From Methyloprofundus sp. (GTDB lineage Bacteria > Pseudomonadota > Gammaproteobacteria > Methylococcales > Methylomonadaceae), in the NCBI RefSeq assembly GCF_965251085.1, contig NZ_OZ252594.1:1545859-1609858 (forward strand): 64,000 nucleotides of DNA, read 5' to 3'. The first letter of the stretch is position 1. Every line of letters starts with the position of its first letter. Positions 32,348 through 45,735 of the stretch are shown here, in pieces. The notes below the pieces were generated by a model. It worked only from the letters and a program-made list of their open reading frames with translations, was not told the origin of the DNA and made no database searches. The position numbers and the translations under genes are program-made.

Positions 32348-34041
32348 CCTAAATCCTGCAAGCATTATACATAATAATCCACAAAACTCCTTATTAAACA
32401 ATGATATAATATCATTTTCCTGATTTCACTATCTCATTGTTTTAATGAAGCCCTCTAAAGTATCAAAATCCTCATCTCACGTAAGAAACCGTACCCGAAC
32501 GGTAAAAATGACATCTACAGCACATGGATTGACAAGCCAGGCGGGACTGATTCCCGTCGTGAAATATTTAGACAGGATAGGTTTTGAAAAAACCGTAAAA
32601 CAAAGCGTTCCACATCGGCGGGGTGAAAATGCAGACCATCACTTATCTGATGTGGTTCTATTGACGTTGGTTGGCATGATGGGGGGAGCAACATCAATGG
32701 CAAAGGTGACGACCGTATGGGCAGATAGCGTACTGCGCAAAGTAGCTGGCTGGATAAAGATTCCTGTTGAAACCACAATTTTACGGATCTTTAAAGAAGT
32801 AAGTGATAGGCAGATAAGCCAGTTTGAAACGCTCACGCATACTTTGCGTGGTCAACACTGGCGGCGATTGCTTCGTTCCGGAAAATCGAAAACTGGCATA
32901 CAATCCGTCCAGTGGGTCGATGTCGATTCAACTGTGGACACCGTTTGTGGTCGACAAGAAGGAAGTGCCAAAGGCTTCAACCCCAAAAAGAAAGGTGCCC
33001 GTTCATACCATCCACAACTCGCTTTTCTAGCGGAAACAAAAGAAATTTTACAAGCCTGGTTCCGGACAGGCAATGCCTTTACAAGCAATGGTGTTGTAGA
33101 ATTTACCAAACAGTTACTTGCACACTTGCCCAATCGGATGCGCATTATTTTTCGCGGTGACAGTGGTTATTTTGTCGGTGATTTGCTTGAATTTCTCGAT
33201 ACCAGAGGGCATGGGTATCTAATAAAGGTTAAACTTAAGAATTTGAACGCATTGCTGGCCAAACAGGCCTGGACAGCCATACAAGGCCGACCCGGTTGGG
33301 AGCAGAGCGAGTTTCAATATCGTTGTGGTGGCTGGTCTCGCTCTCGTCAGTTTGTCGCGGTCAGGATAAAGCAACCTAAACAAGTGACAGGACCTCAGTC
33401 CGAGCTTTGGGATACGGCAGAATATGACTATTTTTGTTATGTAACAACTGAACCTCTATCGCCTTGGCAAACACATAAGAAGTATGGTGAACGAGCGACG
33501 TGCGAAACATGGATTGAAGAAGCAAAATCACAAATGGGTTTAGGTAAAATCAGAACGAATCAATTTCTGGCTAATGCCGCATTATTTCATTGCGCCGTTC
33601 TTGCCTACAATACCGTGCGCTGGATGGCTCAATTGAGTGGCAACAAAACGTTGTGCCAATGGGAGCCGGATACACTTCGTACTTATCTGATTCGGGTGGC
33701 TGGAAAATTACTCACAGGCAATAATCAGCTGAGAGTCAGAACACCTGCAGATCCGCTCTATCCACAGGAATGGGATGATTGGGTTAAGGTGGGGTTACTC
33801 GCTTAACATTAACCGAAGTTAAGTCACTTTGATTAAAAGGTCATGGCACGTTGGCAGGGTGTTTATTGCCTTGGGCTCGGGGGATATCCATACGATACAA
33901 AAAATTTCCTCTATTTATGATTTAAATCTGGATATTTTGATCGGTTGGACAAAGAGGGCTGGCAAAGCGGCAGTAAAAACCTAATAACCACTTAGCTAGA
34001 CAGGTTAATGAGAGTCAAAATATGGGCTTGCAGGATTTAGG
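32348..34041 (+). mobile_element. IS1380-family element, copy 2
   Basis: Same TIRs, 1694 bp, TSD taaca. Confidence 0.95.
32445..33806 (+). CDS. IS1380-family transposase
   Basis: 453 aa; differs from copy 1 at two residues. Confidence 0.92.
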   Translation: MKPSKVSKSSSHVRNRTRTVKMTSTAHGLTSQAGLIPVVKYLDRIGFEKTVKQSVPHRRGENADHHLSDVVLLTLVGMMGGATSMAKVTTVWADSVLRKVAGWIKIPVETTILRIFKEVSDRQISQFETLTHTLRGQHWRRLLRSGKSKTGIQSVQWVDVDSTVDTVCGRQEGSAKGFNPKKKGARSYHPQLAFLAETKEILQAWFRTGNAFTSNGVVEFTKQLLAHLPNRMRIIFRGDSGYFVGDLLEFLDTRGHGYLIKVKLKNLNALLAKQAWTAIQGRPGWEQSEFQYRCGGWSRSRQFVAVRIKQPKQVTGPQSELWDTAEYDYFCYVTTEPLSPWQTHKKYGERATCETWIEEAKSQMGLGKIRTNQFLANAALFHCAVLAYNTVRWMAQLSGNKTLCQWEPDTLRTYLIRVAGKLLTGNNQLRVRTPADPLYPQEWDDWVKVGLLA

Positions 34042-37441: not shown

Positions 37442-37906
37442 ATGACCAATAATGATGTTTTGCGTCGCATTCGCTACACTTTCGACTTCGATGACAACAA
37501 GATGATCGCAGTCTTTGCACAGGTCGACTCTCAGGTTTCGCGGGAGCAGATTAGCAACTGGCTTAAAAAAGATGATGACACTGATTATCAGGAATGCAAG
37601 GATGCTGATATGGCTATTTTTCTGAATGGATTCATTAACGAGAAGCGTGGGAAAAAAGAGGGTTCACAAGTCGAACCCGAGCAGTCTTTGACTAACAATC
37701 TTATCTTTAGAAAATTAAAAATTGCCTTGGATCTAAAAGACGATGACATTTTAGTGATAATGGAATCAGTTGACTTTCGACTAAGTAAGCACGAACTCAG
37801 TGCATTTTTCCGTAAGCCAGGTCATAAGAATTACCGCGAGTGTAAAAATCAGATTTTGCGAAATTTCTTAACAGGCGTGCAAAATAAATACAGAAAAAAT
37901 GACTGA
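37442..37906 (+). CDS. DUF1456 (YehS) family protein
   Basis: MTNNDVLRRIRY, FLNGFINEKRG and HELSAFFRK motifs. Confidence 0.88.
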   Translation: MTNNDVLRRIRYTFDFDDNKMIAVFAQVDSQVSREQISNWLKKDDDTDYQECKDADMAIFLNGFINEKRGKKEGSQVEPEQSLTNNLIFRKLKIALDLKDDDILVIMESVDFRLSKHELSAFFRKPGHKNYRECKNQILRNFLTGVQNKYRKND

Positions 37907-38216: not shown

Positions 38217-39656
38217 CTAAACAGATATATGCAAAGAGCGTCCGCTTAAAGCCAGCGCACTTTCATGAATTGCTTCAGAAATCGTCGGGTGAGCATGAAT
38301 GGTTCGTGCGATATCTTCAGCGGTCGCAGAGAACTCCATCGCCAGGACCACTTCGGCAATTAATTCGGACGCGAGTTCGCCAATAATATGTACCCCTAAA
38401 ATGATTTCTGTGTCCGCTTGCATAATCATTTTAACCATTCCCGAGGTCGTGCCTTTAATTAGCGAACGACTGGTTGAGCTAAATGGGAATATACTGGTTT
38501 TGATATTTTCACCTATCGCAAGCAGGTCTTGCTCTGTTTGCCCTACCCAGGCTATTTCAGGATCAGTATAAATAACATTTGGAATAGTATGATAGTTAAT
38601 CGGGGATTGCTGCTGCGCAATGAGTTCAGCGACAAAAAACCCTTCTTCTATGCCTTTATGCGCAAGCATGGGCCCTGATAATGTCAGGTCACCAATAGCA
38701 TAAACCCCTGGTAGTGTAGAGCAACAGTTTTCATCGACATGCACAAAACCATCTTCATCTAATAATAGATCGGCAGAGGCCGCTATCAGTGTCTCCGTGT
38801 TAGGTTTCCTACCTGAGGCGACGACTAGTTTTTCAAATAAGCATTGGTGTCGTCCCTGGCTATCTTCGTATTCTACATTGACCTGGTCTTGTTCAATCTG
38901 TGTAGAAATAACGCGTGCGCAGAGCCGAATATCCATCCCCTGTTGACTATAAAGTTTAAAAGCTTCATCAGATATTTCCTGGTCAGCCATGGTCATAAAT
39001 GAGCCTTGTGCTTCGAGTATGACGACTTTTGTGCCTAACTTGTTCCAGATACCTGCAAGTTCGATGCCTATCGCCCCAGCACCAATTATCCCCAGCGTTT
39101 TAGGTGCACTTTGCAAATTCAGAGCGGTCTGCACATCAATAATAAATTCATTATCGATCGGTGCAAATTTCAACTCGACCGGGCTGGAGCCTGCAGCAAG
39201 GATTATCTTATCTGCGGTTATCACCTTGGGCAGGTTATCACTGAAAGGAATGATTTCTACCCGATTAGGGTTGATAAGTTGAGCATCGGCCTTAATAATC
39301 TCAACTTTATTATCGATAAATATTTTCTCGACCTGCTGGTTTAATAAAGCAACGATAGATTCCTTACGTTTTTGCATTTGTGGAATATCTGCCTGGATAT
39401 TGTCTGCACTAATACCATGGTCGGAGATACCGTGATTAACTAAATTAAATAATTTTGCCGACTCTAATAGCGCGACAGCAGAGATACAGCCACCATTAAC
39501 ATAATTGCCGCCTAGGCAAGGAGTCGAGTTTTTTGAGACCCAATTATCAATACAAGCCGTTTTCAGGCCTAATTGAGTAGCACGAGTCGCCGCAACATAG
39601 CCTGCAGGGCCGGCACCTATGACAATTACATCGAAATCATTTTTTTGTTGAGACAT
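38217..39656 (-). CDS. lpdA: Dihydrolipoyl dehydrogenase-like protein (E3) with an atypical active site
   Basis: GAGPAGY FAD motif, GAGAIGIE, HPTISE; the disulfide motif reads GGNYVNGGCIS instead of GGTCLNVGCIP. Confidence 0.85.
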   Translation of the reverse strand: MSQQKNDFDVIVIGAGPAGYVAATRATQLGLKTACIDNWVSKNSTPCLGGNYVNGGCISAVALLESAKLFNLVNHGISDHGISADNIQADIPQMQKRKESIVALLNQQVEKIFIDNKVEIIKADAQLINPNRVEIIPFSDNLPKVITADKIILAAGSSPVELKFAPIDNEFIIDVQTALNLQSAPKTLGIIGAGAIGIELAGIWNKLGTKVVILEAQGSFMTMADQEISDEAFKLYSQQGMDIRLCARVISTQIEQDQVNVEYEDSQGRHQCLFEKLVVASGRKPNTETLIAASADLLLDEDGFVHVDENCCSTLPGVYAIGDLTLSGPMLAHKGIEEGFFVAELIAQQQSPINYHTIPNVIYTDPEIAWVGQTEQDLLAIGENIKTSIFPFSSTSRSLIKGTTSGMVKMIMQADTEIILGVHIIGELASELIAEVVLAMEFSATAEDIARTIHAHPTISEAIHESALALSGRSLHISV

Positions 39657-39670
39657 GAGCTGATCCTGAC

Positions 39671-40885
39671 TTAAATATTAAGTAATAAATGTGCAGGCGA
39701 TTCCAAACCTTCTTTAATCGCGACTAAAAACTGCACTGCGTCTCGTCCGTCTACTAGACGGTGATCATAAGATAAAGCAAGATACATAATAGGGCGTATA
39801 ACAATTTCACCCTTTTCAACAACGGCACGTTCGGTAATCGCATGCATACCTAAAATGGCACATTGTGGTGGATTCAGAATTGGTGTTGACAGCATAGAGC
39901 CAAAAATTCCACCATTGGTAATGGTGAAAGTGCCGCCATTAAGCTCATCGTAAGTAAGCTTACCTGATATTGCTTTCTGGCCAAAATCGACAATATTCTT
40001 TTCTATCCCTGAAAAATCCAGCTGGTCGGCATCGCGTAACACAGGAACAATCAGGCCACGGGGTGAAGAAACCGCGATACCTATATCATAATAACCATGA
40101 TAGATAATATCTTCACCGTCAATCGATGCATTGATAGCAGGAAAACGTTTAAGCGCTTCAATCGAGGCTTTAATAAAAAAAGACATAAAGCCTAATTTAA
40201 CCTCATGTTTCGCAATAAAGCGCTCTTGATACTGCTTGCGTAAATCAATAACACTTTGCATGTTGACCTCATTGAAGGTGGTTAACATGGCAGCGTTTTG
40301 CTGAGCTTGTAATAAACGCTCTGCTACTTTCGCGCGTAAACGCGTCATTGGGACACGTTGTTCTGACCTGCCATTGCTAAGTGTAGAGCTGACATTAGAG
40401 CTAGACTCTATTGTGGGTGGAGGCTCTGATTTTTCTTCAGTTTGCGGTGCAGGAGTCGCATGTTGAGTTAAATAATTTTGCACATCACTTTTAGTGATGC
40501 GGCCCCCTTTACCGGTACCTGTTACCAGCGCGGGATCAAGGTCATTCTCAAATATAATTCGGCGTACTGCAGGGCTTAACGGGATTTCAGTACTGGCTGG
40601 TTCGGTGTTTGCAACTTCAGGGGCGGGCGCTTGAGTTATTTCTTCATTTTCGGTGCTAATTCTAGCCAGCAAATCACCACCGACGACAGTGCTGCCATCT
40701 TGCACAATAATTTCACTCAGTACGCCTGCTTTAGGGGATGGGACTTCAAGTACAACTTTATCAGTTTCCAGGTCGACTAAATTATCATCTTTCTGAATGC
40801 TATCACCGACTTGCTTGTGCCAAGTGATTAAAGTCGCATCTGCAACAGATTCGGGTAAAGTTGGAACGCGGATTTCTATGCTCAT
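39671..40885 (-). CDS. sucB: Dihydrolipoyl succinyltransferase (E2o)
   Basis: Lipoyl ETDKV; catalytic DHRLVDG. Confidence 0.95.
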
Positions 40886-43722
40886 GATGGTTTCCTTGCT
40901 GAAGCAGCTGGGCCGTAAAGTGCTGTTTGTACGACTTCTTTTTGTTGTTCTAAATGTTTGGCTAAATTACCTACTGCTGGAGATGCTGAAGCTTGACGGC
41001 CACAGTAAGTTAATTCCAGATGGTCAGGTTTAAATATAGAAAAATTATGCCGTGATTGATACCAGGCCCCTTGGTTTTGCGGTTCTTCCTGGCACCAGAC
41101 TAAACTTTCAAGGTTGGGGTATTTGGTAAATTCAGTAGAATAGTCTCGAATTGGGAAAGGATATAACTGCTCAATCCTTACAATGGCAACATTAGGCAAA
41201 CTATCACGTGTGCGAGCTTCGAGTAGATCATAATAAACTTTCCCAGAGCACAGTACGAGGCGGGTAACTTTTTCTCTATCTATGGCGGGGTCCGTTTCAG
41301 AAATAACGGTCTGGAAATGCCCATCAACCAGATCCTCTAGCGTCGAAACAGCTGCTTTATGTCTTAACAAGCTTTTCGGTGACATAACGATAAGCGGTTT
41401 ACGATAGTTGCGTACCACCTGCCTGCGCAATAAGTGGAAGATCTGTGCCGGAGTCGAGGGCACACAAACTTGCATATTCTGATCAGCACATAATTGTAAA
41501 TAACGTTCCAGACGCGCAGATGAATGTTCGGGTCCCTGGCCTTCCATGCCATGCGGTAACAACATGACGAGTCCCGATAATCGACCCCATTTGCTTTCAC
41601 CCGAGCTAATAAACTGATCGATTAATACTTGGGCGCCATTGGCAAAATCACCAAACTGGGCTTCCCATATAGTTAAGGTTTCAGGCACGGTAGAGCTATA
41701 CCCGTATTCAAAACCGAGTACGCCGGCCTCAGAAAGAATTGAATCAAAAACTTGTGCACGCCCCTGATCCACATCCAAGTGCTTAACAGGGATATACGAT
41801 TCACCATTAAGCTGGTTATGGAGGATAATGTGGCGATGAAAAAAAGTACCGCGACCGACATCCTGCCCCACCAATCGAACATTAAATTTGTCCATCAGCA
41901 AGGTGGCATAAGCCATATTTTCAGCAAAGCCCCAATCCAGCGGCATCGCTCCGGCAGCCATTTTACGCCGGTTTTCCATAATTTTGGTCACCCGGGCATG
42001 CAATTCAAATCCGGGAGGTAAACGCTGCGACTGATTATTGCAAAAACGTATGCGCTCTAGTGGAACACGCGTATCACAGGATATATCCCACTGCTGGCCT
42101 ACATACTTATCCCATAATTTGGAATAAGAGTAGTGTGAATCGATAATAGGACGTGAAACCGGTTTTTCTGCATCCAGCAAATCCTGATAATTCTGCTCCA
42201 TATCCTGTACCTGCTGTTCGCTTAACACCTCTTGCTCTATAAGGTGATTTGCATAGAGAGTGCAAGTAGTATCCAGGGAATTGATTTTTTTATACATCAT
42301 CGGCTGAGTGGTCGATGGTTCATCTGCCTCATTATGTCCCCGGCGACGATAACAAATAAGGTCAATAACCACATCTTTTTTAAAAGTCGCACGGTAATCA
42401 ATCGCCATTTGCGTAACGAACAGCACGGCCTCTGGGTCATCGCCATTCACATGAAACACCGGTGCCTGAATCATATTTGCAACATCGGTACAGTATAAAG
42501 TAGACCGCGCATCGAATGGATCGCTGGTAGTAAAGCCTATCTGGTTATTGATAACCACATGAATTGTGCCACCCGTTGCAAACGCCCTGGTTTGCGCCAT
42601 ATTCAAGGTTTCCATCACGATTCCCTGTCCGGCAAATGCAGCATCTCCGTGGATAAGAATAGGCACTACGGTATCGGTACTGCCTTTTCCATACCTATCC
42701 TGGCGCGCTTTGACAGAGCCTTCAACCACAGGGTTGATGATTTCTAGGTGAGAAGGATTAAAGGCCATGGTGACATGTGCAAATCCGCCATCGGTTTCCA
42801 TGTTAGATGAAAACCCCATATGGTATTTAACATCTCCGGAAATGACACCTCGATCTGTTGTCGCAGTACCTTTAAACTCACTAAAAAGTTGTGCAGGACT
42901 TTTGCCTAGAATATTAATCAGCACATTTAAGCGTCCTCTATGCGCCATGCCGATAACGAGTTCTTTAGTACCATATTTACCCGAGCGCTGAATAATCTCA
43001 TCCAGAATGGGGATAAGGCATTCCCCGCCTTCTAGCGAAAAACGCTTTTGACCGACGAAGTTTCGATGCAAATATTTTTCTATGCCTTCAGCTGCGGTTA
43101 ATTGCTCTAATAACCAGATTCTTTTTTTATTATCAATATTTTCACCTGGTTTGGAGCCTTCCAGGCGGTTTTTAATCCAGCGTTTAATATCAGCATCGAA
43201 TATATGCATATATTCAGTACCAATATTCCCGCAATAAATTTCTTTTAAGGTAGCAATAATCTCTTTTAATGGTAAGCGATCTACCCCATATAAGGTACCG
43301 GTATCAAATAAAGTTTCCAGATCGGGCTCTGATAATCCGTAATAATTCGGATCTAGATCAGGCACATTTCTATGAATTTTACCCAGCGGATTATTGGTCG
43401 CCATTTCATGTCCATGCGAACGATAATGGGTAATCAAGCGTGCAACAGAAGATTGTTTTTTGACACTTTCTTCGGTAAAGCCCTGTAATTCGGCTATGCG
43501 CGAAGAATTTGATGTGGCAAGTAAAGCAAAGCGTTCTACAACAGGACTATGAGCGATATCGCGTCGATTGGGTACTTGCGGTAATTGGGCAAATTTTTCA
43601 CGCCAGGTATTTTCAACAGAATCAGGGTTTTCCAGAAATTGTTCGTACAAGTCTTCTATATAAGGTGCATTACTTCCATATAGAGCAGAGGTATCTTGAA
43701 AAAATTTAAGCAAGTTACTCAT
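40882..43722 (-). CDS. sucA: 2-oxoglutarate dehydrogenase E1
   Basis: [23 protein letters not shown] and WEAQFGDF motifs. Confidence 0.95.
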
Positions 43723-44041: not shown

Positions 44042-45735
44042 CCTAAATCCTGCAAGCATTATACATAATAATCCACAAAACTCCTTATTAAACAATGATA
44101 TAATATCATTTTCCTGATTTCACTATCTCATTGTTTTAATGAAGCCCTCTAAAGTATCAAAATCCTCATCTCACGTAAGAAACCGTACCCGAACGGTAAA
44201 AATGACATCTACAGCACATGGATTGACAAGCCAGGCGGGACTGATTCCCGTCGTGAAATATTTAGACAGGATAGGTTTTGAAAAAACCGTAAAACAAAGC
44301 GTTCCACATCGGCGGGGTGAAAATGCAGACCATCACTTATCTGATGTGGTTCTATTGACGTTGGTTGGCATGATGGGGGGAGCAACATCAATGGCAAAGG
44401 TGACGACCGTATGGGCAGATAGCGTACTGCGCAAAGTAGCTGGCTGGATAAAGATTCCTGTTGAAACCACAATTTTACGGATCTTTAAAGAAGTAAGTGA
44501 TAGGCAGATAAGCCAGTTTGAAACGCTCACGCATACTTTGCGTGGTCAACACTGGCGGCGATTGCTTCGTTCCGGAAAATCGAAAACTGGCATACAATCC
44601 GTCCAGTGGGTCGATGTCGATTCAACTGTGGACACCGTTTGTGGTCGACAAGAAGGAAGTGCCAAAGGCTTCAACCCCAAAAAGAAAGGTGCCCGTTCAT
44701 ACCATCCACAACTCGCTTTTCTAGCGGAAACAAAAGAAATTTTACAAGCCTGGTTCCGGACAGGCAATGCCTTTACAAGCAATGGTGTTGTAGAATTTAC
44801 CAAACAGTTACTTGCACACTTGCCCAATCGGATGCGCATTATTTTTCGCGGTGACAGTGGTTATTTTGTCGGTGATTTGCTTGAATTTCTCGATACCAGA
44901 GGGCATGGGTATCTAATAAAGGTTAAACTTAAGAATTTGAACGCATTGCTGGCCAAACAGGCCTGGACAGCCATACAAGGCCGACCCGGTTGGGAGCAGA
45001 GCGAGTTTCAATATCGTTGTGGTGGCTGGTCTCGCTCTCGTCAGTTTGTCGCGGTCAGGATAAAGCAACCTAAACAAGTGACAGGACCTCAGTCCGAGCT
45101 TTGGGATACGGCAGAATATGACTATTTTTGTTATGTAACAACTGAACCTCTATCGCCTTGGCAAACACATAAGAAGTATGGTGAACGAGCGACGTGCGAA
45201 ACATGGATTGAAGAAGCAAAATCACAAATGGGTTTAGGTAAAATCAGAACGAATCAATTTCTGGCTAATGCCGCATTATTTCATTGCGCCGTTCTTGCCT
45301 ACAATACCGTGCGCTGGATGGCTCAATTGAGTGGCAACAAAACGTTGTGCCAATGGGAGCCGGATACACTTCGTACTTATCTGATTCGGGTGGCTGGAAA
45401 ATTACTCACAGGCAATAATCAGCTGAGAGTCAGAACACCTGCAGATCCGCTCTATCCACAGGAATGGGATGATTGGGTTAAGGTGGGGTTACTCGCTTAA
45501 CATTAACCGAAGTTAAGTCACTTTGATTAAAAGGTCATGGCACGTTGGCAGGGTGTTTATTGCCTTGGGCTCGGGGGATATCCATACGATACAAAAAATT
45601 TCCTCTATTTATGATTTAAATCTGGATATTTTGATCGGTTGGACAAAGAGGGCTGGCAAAGCGGCAGTAAAAACCTAATAACCACTTAGCTAGACAGGTT
45701 AATGAGAGTCAAAATATGGGCTTGCAGGATTTAGG
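44042..45735 (+). mobile_element. IS1380-family element, copy 3
   Basis: Same TIRs, 1694 bp, TSD tagca. Confidence 0.95.
44139..45500 (+). CDS. IS1380-family transposase
   Basis: Protein identical to copy 2. Confidence 0.92.
   Translation: MKPSKVSKSSSHVRNRTRTVKMTSTAHGLTSQAGLIPVVKYLDRIGFEKTVKQSVPHRRGENADHHLSDVVLLTLVGMMGGATSMAKVTTVWADSVLRKVAGWIKIPVETTILRIFKEVSDRQISQFETLTHTLRGQHWRRLLRSGKSKTGIQSVQWVDVDSTVDTVCGRQEGSAKGFNPKKKGARSYHPQLAFLAETKEILQAWFRTGNAFTSNGVVEFTKQLLAHLPNRMRIIFRGDSGYFVGDLLEFLDTRGHGYLIKVKLKNLNALLAKQAWTAIQGRPGWEQSEFQYRCGGWSRSRQFVAVRIKQPKQVTGPQSELWDTAEYDYFCYVTTEPLSPWQTHKKYGERATCETWIEEAKSQMGLGKIRTNQFLANAALFHCAVLAYNTVRWMAQLSGNKTLCQWEPDTLRTYLIRVAGKLLTGNNQLRVRTPADPLYPQEWDDWVKVGLLA

Follow-up and report, generated by a model that had tools for sequence, protein, structure and literature searches.

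An LpdG-type E3 paralog without the redox disulfide in the 2-oxoglutarate dehydrogenase operon of Methyloprofundus and most methanotrophic Methylococcales

We analysed a stretch of 64,000 nucleotides from Methyloprofundus sp. (Gammaproteobacteria; Methylococcales; Methylomonadaceae; NCBI RefSeq assembly GCF_965251085.1, contig NZ_OZ252594.1, positions 1,545,859 to 1,609,858 of the forward strand), here called the window, in which the operon for the 2-oxoglutarate dehydrogenase (OGDH) complex includes an lpd-like gene. It encodes a paralog of dihydrolipoamide dehydrogenase (E3) that has Tyr in place of the interchange Cys of the redox disulfide and Val in place of the flavin Lys, and the Cys-to-aromatic change is fixed in the sucAB-linked Lpd of most methanotrophic Methylococcales. 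Judged by these residues, the E3 paralog very probably lacks normal dihydrolipoamide dehydrogenase activity. The explanation to which we commit, at a probability of roughly 0.55, is that of a lipoamide-inactive paralog that binds flavin adenine dinucleotide (FAD) and nicotinamide adenine dinucleotide (NAD(H)) and acts as an operon-encoded partner of the E2o succinyltransferase, while OGDH would depend on the Lpd of the aceEF operon and be capped.

Active site, class and fold of the sucAB-linked E3

In the translation of 38217-39656 (minus strand), the active-site helix of the E3 paralog reads LGGNYVNGGCISAVALL, with the layout NSTPC47-LGG-N-Y52-VNGG-C57-I-S59-A-V61-ALL. Aligned residue by residue with the solved LpdG-type E3s 5U8U, 1LPF and 3LAD (E-values 1e-130 to 1e-135), Y52 takes the place of the first Cys of GGTCLNVGCIPSKALL, C57 matches its second Cys and V61 falls at the Lys; Ser59 replaces the Pro that follows the second Cys. 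Because the interchange Cys is a Tyr, no redox disulfide can form. An earlier note, made from the letters of this DNA, had read the segment as GGNYVNGGCIS with a TAT codon at the redox Cys and had described the FAD, NAD and HPTxSE motifs as intact; translation and alignment to the solved E3s agree on both counts (G14-x-G-x-x-G19, G192-x-G-x-x-G197 with E215, H454-E461). The Cys loss had thus been recognized, whereas the loss of the flavin Lys as a separate defining change and the clade-wide nature of the variant had been missed. The residues concerned are listed here with their state in 153 distinct sequences of the variant clade and, where given, in 135 diverse canonical E3s.

38217..39656, minus strand: gene for the LpdG-type E3 paralog without redox disulfide, 479 aa (TIGR01350, 438.7 bits vs a cut-off of 408.8)
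39501..39503, minus strand: codon 52, TAT (Tyr), where canonical E3s have the interchange (N-terminal) redox Cys (Y 97, F 46 and H 10 among 153 clade members; Cys in 135/135 canonical E3s)
39486..39488, minus strand: codon 57, TGT (Cys); the charge-transfer Cys proximal to the flavin is retained (147/153 in the clade)
39474..39476, minus strand: codon 61, GTC = Val, at the invariant flavin Lys (...IPSKALL) (M 53, I 46, V 41 and L 13 in the clade; Lys in 135/135 canonical E3s)
39516..39518, minus strand: codon 47, TGC (Cys), within PCLGG upstream of the redox site (Cys in 49/153 clade members, Ser in 74)
38274..38297, minus strand: H454-A-H456-P-T-I-S-E461, segment of the His-Glu catalytic dyad, retained (clade: His 145/153, Glu 138/153)
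39600..39617, minus strand: FAD-binding G14-A-G-P-A-G19 (all three Gly invariant in the clade)
39066..39083, minus strand: NAD-binding motif G192-A-G-A-I-G197, with E199 and the acidic E215 further on (G192 152/153, G194 152/153, G197 153/153)
38682..38684, minus strand: codon 325 (Thr), inserted as a single extra residue behind the GD flavin motif, GDL-T-LSGPMLAHKG (147/153 variants)

Since the first Cys, the second Cys and the Lys are each found in 135/135 canonical E3s, the state of the E3 paralog is not ordinary variation. Among the sites that are at least 90% invariant in the canonical set, only seven differ in the clade, and four of these (52, 53, 59 and 61) lie on the disulfide helix, a pattern that points to a change narrowly targeted to the redox centre. 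The acidic residue at position 215 is Glu in 139 and Asp in 14 clade members. The insertion at Thr325 is missing in 134/135 canonical sequences, the nearest canonical relatives included, and is specific to the variant clade.

A compensating Cys elsewhere in the protein is rejected: apart from the redox site, the only highly conserved Cys columns are 35 and 311, and the aligned Pseudomonas LpdG has Cys at both. A Tyr-Cys cross-link cofactor was set aside, as it does not fit the 30% of the clade that carry Phe at site 52. We also noted a vicinal Cys-Cys pair (VDENCCST; codons 311-312, 38721-38726, minus strand): Cys311 occurs in 97% of the variant clade vs 12% of canonical E3s, yet is found in Pseudomonas LpdG, and Cys312 in 50% vs 1%.

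The protein passes the equivalog cut-off of TIGR01350 (dihydrolipoyl dehydrogenase, EC 1.8.1.4) narrowly, which is why annotation pipelines name it dihydrolipoyl dehydrogenase. Among the features of the E3 class, the redox disulfide CxxxxC on the flavin si-face helix and the Lys four residues after the second Cys are absent; the His-Glu dyad (HPTxSE), both GxGxxG motifs, E215 and the E3 fold are present. Other flavoprotein families gave no match above their cut-offs: the E3 paralog scored 223.5 bits against the profile of LpdA-type NAD(P)H-quinone dehydrogenases (NF005883, Mycobacterium tuberculosis Rv3303c; cut-off 479), 280.7 bits against that of SthA, the soluble pyridine nucleotide transhydrogenase (NF003585; cut-off 465), and 70.1 bits against TIGR03385, the CoA-disulfide reductase / NADH peroxidase group (cut-off 578.8). 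With the single-cysteine flavoprotein disulfide reductases of the last group it shares one flavin-proximal Cys and nothing more.

Its closest known counterparts are the LpdG-type E3s of the sucAB-lpd operons of Pseudomonas and Azotobacter (5U8U, 1LPF, 6AWA, 3LAD), to which it is 45% identical over the full length (E-value 1e-135). An AlphaFold2 model (predicted local distance difference test, pLDDT, 90.6) superimposes on P. aeruginosa LpdG 5U8U with a template modelling (TM) score of 0.95-0.96 and a root-mean-square deviation of 1.4 Å. Fold, operon position after sucB, FAD and NAD motifs and the His-Glu dyad are common to both; the E3 paralog differs in having Tyr for the interchange Cys, Val for the flavin Lys, Ser for the Pro, and the one-residue insertion.

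Distribution and evolution in the Methylococcales

We surveyed 151 Methylococcales genomes, whose families and genera are partly given here by survey labels. A variant E3 linked to sucB occurs in most genera of the window's own family (Methylomonadaceae) and in families f2, f6 and f8, and a canonical one in Cycloclasticus (f9), f10 and f3; sucAB without a linked lpd is found in the Methylomonas-like genus g3, genus g4 and families f5 and f7, and no sucA was found in family f4 in this survey. Variant and canonical alike, the linked E3 gene lies directly downstream of sucB in 48/48 sucB-linked loci from seven families. In one g3 genome (G077, locus L084), genes for a small exported protein and an MBL-fold hydrolase follow sucA-sucB, with no lpd; here sucAB seems to have survived a deletion of the linked E3 gene. 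The variant is no strict correlate of methanotrophy, as family f3 combines pmoA with a canonical sucB-linked E3 and other pmoA-bearing groups have no linked E3.

By exact-sequence look-up, carriers of the variant include Methylotuvimicrobium alcaliphilum 20Z (CCE23265.1) and M. buryatense, further Methylobacter tundripaludum, M. luteus, M. marinus, Methylobacter psychrophilus, Methylovulum miyakonense, Crenothrix polyspora, Methylomicrobium album and Methyloglobulus. Close relatives of the window gene come from Methyloprofundus metagenome-assembled genomes and from methanotrophic symbionts of Bathymodiolus. All of these proteins are annotated plainly as dihydrolipoyl dehydrogenase. The literature on methanotroph E3 and OGDH, searched also by the accessions CCE23265, WP_014148059 and WP_017839334, yielded no paper mentioning the Cys loss.

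A second E3-like protein with an altered redox site was seen in family f7 (G027, G056; locus L050, 1917-3398, and locus L051). It has Ser at the interchange-Cys site (GGTSLLNGCIPAKILL), Tyr or Phe for the His and Asp for the Glu, and sits on a very long branch; its gene is unlinked to sucAB and comes after a citramalate-synthase-like gene and a small cupredoxin-like open reading frame (ORF).

The change at site 52 is fixed and old. All 120 of the 120 nearest database homologs carry Tyr or Phe there; Tyr was found in 36 independent assemblies, encoded by both TAT and TAC, and other assemblies have Phe (TTT/TTC) or His (CAT/CAC). With Tyr recurring in so many assemblies under synonymous codon use, a sequencing error is excluded. 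The check proposed in the earlier note, to align relatives and see whether Cys-to-Tyr is fixed, thus came out in its favour, with a Cys-to-aromatic change fixed in the clade. Within the Methyloprofundus group, the ratio of nonsynonymous to synonymous substitution rates (dN/dS) relative to the window gene is about 0.03-0.05 (0.04-0.09 for sucB), rough values because dS is near saturation, and these ratios indicate that the E3 paralog is under purifying selection. Protein distances of E3 relative to SucB gave a ratio of 1.35 among variant genomes vs 0.91 among the nearest canonical relatives (15 pairs for the latter), which argues that the E3 paralog evolves moderately faster, without collapse.

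In the best tree, calculated without the trait columns, all 33 variant rows fall on one side of a branch with weak support; a single origin would agree with this tree, which neither shows nor rejects it. The variant clade spans a total tree length of 9.8 substitutions per site. Within it, later independent losses affected Cys57 at least three times, His456 at least four times and Glu461 at least twice, and in Methylobacter psychrophilus-type sequences both Cys and His are gone; among the 135 canonical E3s there are no equivalent losses beyond one or two exceptions. Such repeated losses are the pattern expected if lipoamide chemistry ended at the first step and the leftover residues were only partly constrained. 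The Methyloprofundus protein represents the least decayed state, with the interchange Cys, Lys and Pro gone and Cys57, His and Glu kept.

Operon context and a second, canonical E3

The E3 paralog is encoded together with E1o and E2o, in the order sucA, sucB, lpd-like on the minus strand.

40882..43722, minus strand: sucA, 2-oxoglutarate dehydrogenase E1o, 946 aa (NF006914, 1316 bits vs a cut-off of 764)
39671..40885, minus strand: sucB, E2o succinyltransferase, 404 aa (NF004309, 579 bits vs a cut-off of 449)

The stop of sucA overlaps the start of sucB, and the lpd-like gene begins 14 nt beyond sucB; a Shine-Dalgarno sequence, AGGA, lies 7 nt 5' of its ATG. In the sucB product, a lipoyl domain (ETDK) and a peripheral subunit-binding domain (LSPAVRR...) accompany the catalytic DHRLVDG motif, all three intact in the window as well as in 52/52 relatives compared; the lipoyl lysine, the subunit-binding domain and the catalytic His of E2o are preserved. 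The best terminator-like hairpin after the operon (37660-37678, minus strand; GGGTTC...GAACCC plus a T-run) lies about 540 nt beyond the stop codon of the lpd-like gene, within a convergent ORF of 154 aa (37442-37906, plus strand). A DDE transposase gene (453 aa) occurs in two 100% identical copies (44139-45500 and 32445-33806, both plus strand); one of them is found 416 bp upstream of where sucA starts, on the strand opposite to it, and may be located within or close to the suc promoter region.

As the earlier note had considered, there is a second lpd elsewhere: a canonical copy (LGGVCLNVGCIPSKALL), the one canonical Lpd of the genome, is encoded directly after aceE-aceF. Of the other two E3 homologs, one is glutathione-reductase-like and the other a DedA-fused reductase; the latter belongs to a 723-aa frame (C1:2653129-2654490, locus L003) that joins a DedA/TVP38-like membrane domain at its N-terminus to a pyridine nucleotide-disulfide oxidoreductase in which GGDCLNTGCVPSKAL is intact. 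The product of the aceEF-operon lpd is accordingly the only canonical E3 available to E2o in this genome, where a search for E2-type lipoyl-domain proteins found E2o and E2p and no others. A search of the genome with the TIGR03710 profile for 2-oxoglutarate:ferredoxin oxidoreductase returned weak matches within a 1707-aa frame and none above the cut-off.

Genomes with a variant, a canonical or no linked E3 do not differ consistently in the E2o binding domain. Relatives keep sucAB with only an Lpd of the aceEF type, and this, together with the likeness of the binding domain across the classes, suggests that E2o can be served by an Lpd of that type in Methylococcales. Escherichia coli has a single lpd in the aceEF operon that is shared by the pyruvate dehydrogenase (PDH) and OGDH complexes, and the canonical lpd of the window genome likewise follows aceE-aceF; a further, disabled E3 gene behind sucB, as in the window genome, is absent from E. 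coli.

Function of the E3 paralog and the OGDH question

The earlier note had inferred a pseudo-E3 or a repurposed flavoprotein, with OGDH either borrowing another E3 or being throttled, and the results given above support that reading. The explanation we favour combines these observations. With neither a redox disulfide (Cys to Tyr) nor a flavin lysine (Lys to Val), normal dihydrolipoamide:NAD+ chemistry would be impossible. The protein is predicted still to fold, very probably to dimerise like an E3, and still to bind FAD and NAD(H), and it would share one tightly coupled transcript with E1o and E2o. We infer that it docks on the intact subunit-binding domain of E2o. E2o sites so occupied would be a dead end for the reoxidation of lipoyl groups, real E3 turnover for OGDH would be supplied by the Lpd of the aceE-aceF-lpd operon, and OGDH flux would thereby be capped, a braking effect that is conditional on such docking. 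A side activity as NADH:acceptor flavoprotein, of the diaphorase, quinone reductase or transhydrogenase type, also seems likely.

Biochemical reports point in the same direction. Two reviews give OGDH activity as absent in type I methanotrophs (PMC6373157, PMC10602362), and a third paper reports that OGDH was not detected in M. alcaliphilum 20ZR, with PDH activity at 120-290 (PMC5802761); the statement in the earlier note that such assays had found little OGDH activity in these organisms thus holds. As M. alcaliphilum 20Z carries the variant E3, we count the undetected activity in 20ZR as support.

Several points weigh against this explanation. Carbon-13 work is reported to show an oxidative tricarboxylic acid (TCA) cycle in M. 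buryatense on methane (PMC6456754 and PMC6373157, citing Fu 2017), which argues against a hard OGDH block, and three routes from 2-oxoglutarate are also reported for this strain. Genomes of the Methylococcaceae-like and Methylomonas-like groups do not have the variant gene, though these groups, too, are reported to have no OGDH activity, and the variant is therefore not the sole cause of the phenotype. Cys57, His456 and Glu461 are still conserved in most genera, the window's included, and evolve at about 0.2-0.4 of the average site rate, so that some thiol chemistry may persist. Finally, a purely structural role does not explain the strict retention of the NAD site.

A bolder extension, which we regard as improbable, is that the disulfide-less E3 has been selected as a dominant-negative or NADH-sensing OGDH subunit that rivals the aceEF-operon Lpd for E2o and gates the oxidative TCA cycle in gammaproteobacterial methanotrophs. 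If true, this gating E3 would be a molecular cause of the long-known missing OGDH activity despite apparently complete suc genes.

The alternative that survives best is still an unlikely one in our estimate: the protein might be an NAD(P)H:acceptor flavoprotein that stands on its own, an LpdA-like diaphorase, quinone reductase or transhydrogenase that no longer works with OGDH and remains in the operon by inheritance only. Invariant FAD and NAD motifs beside lost or decaying lipoamide-specific residues would suit such a role, and with site 52 limited to Tyr, Phe or His and hydrophobic residues alone at the Lys site, the pocket looks remodelled, not randomly decayed. There is a precedent in LpdA of M. 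tuberculosis (Rv3303c), an NAD(P)H quinone reductase/transhydrogenase that has also lost part of its disulfide centre while keeping FAD and pyridine-nucleotide binding; according to PMC2440308 (citing Argyrou 2004), it has quinone reductase and no lipoamide dehydrogenase activity, in line with the earlier note. The Cys-to-Ser E3-like gene of family f7, away from sucAB and beside a citramalate-synthase-like gene, is a further parallel. The position after sucB, however, is kept in every sucB-linked locus examined, with tight spacing in the window, and is hard to explain without a shared function. The E3 paralog belongs to the OGDH-type LpdG lineage and scores far under the LpdA-type (223.5 vs 479) and SthA (280.7 vs 465) cut-offs; M. 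tuberculosis LpdA comes from another lineage and is not encoded beside E1/E2 genes, and the window protein retains the His-Glu dyad.

We give still less credence to a working OGDH E3 with a single-thiol, substrate-assisted mechanism, in which Cys57 would form a flavin C4a adduct and a mixed disulfide with the lipoyl group, to be resolved by the second lipoyl thiol. Such chemistry is formally possible by reasoning, the retention of Cys57, His456 and Glu461 in the window genus and most others would be accounted for, and operon position and strong purifying selection fit; so does the oxidative TCA cycle reported for M. buryatense (PMC6456754). This mechanism would, however, have to work with a hydrophobic residue for the flavin Lys that is present in 135/135 canonical E3s and with a bulky aromatic side chain filling the interchange-Cys position, and several lineages without Cys57, His or Glu keep the gene in the same operon arrangement. 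The C44S and C49S mutants of the E. coli enzyme are reported to have no lipoamide activity, which we also count against it. OGDH was, moreover, undetected in 20ZR extracts (PMC5802761).

It is very improbable that Cys47 of PCLGG pairs with Cys57 in Methyloprofundus and so restores the redox disulfide, an arrangement the earlier note had named as one that would overturn its reading. Cys47 is present in the window protein and in many, not all, sequences of the Methyloprofundus group, yet in only 32% of the clade; Ser, Arg, Lys or Ile occur elsewhere, and even among the closest relatives (70-85% identical) there are replacements by Tyr, Arg, Ile, Lys or Leu. The model places residue 47 in the coil before the 50-54 helix, ten residues from Cys57 and, by homology, probably toward the pyrophosphate end of FAD, and the flavin Lys would remain missing. 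A sequencing error or decaying pseudogene, suggested by the unusual residue and nothing more, we count as already refuted by the same state in dozens of independent assemblies with synonymous codon variation, the open full-length frame, the dN/dS of 0.03-0.05 and the confident predicted fold.

For decades, type I methanotrophs have been described as OGDH-negative, although a full set of genes for the complex appears to be present in their genomes, and sucAB-lpd is treated as a normal OGDH both in metabolic models and in engineering work on Methylotuvimicrobium. In most type I methanotrophs, the two main engineering strains included, the operon's own E3 does not have the residues for lipoamide chemistry, and the automatic name dihydrolipoyl dehydrogenase is wrong or incomplete for the whole clade. 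On the explanation favoured here, the E3 paralog would be a natural example of a catalytic subunit turned into a conserved, non-canonical partner within a multienzyme complex, and its recognition makes the OGDH question directly testable in type I methanotrophs.

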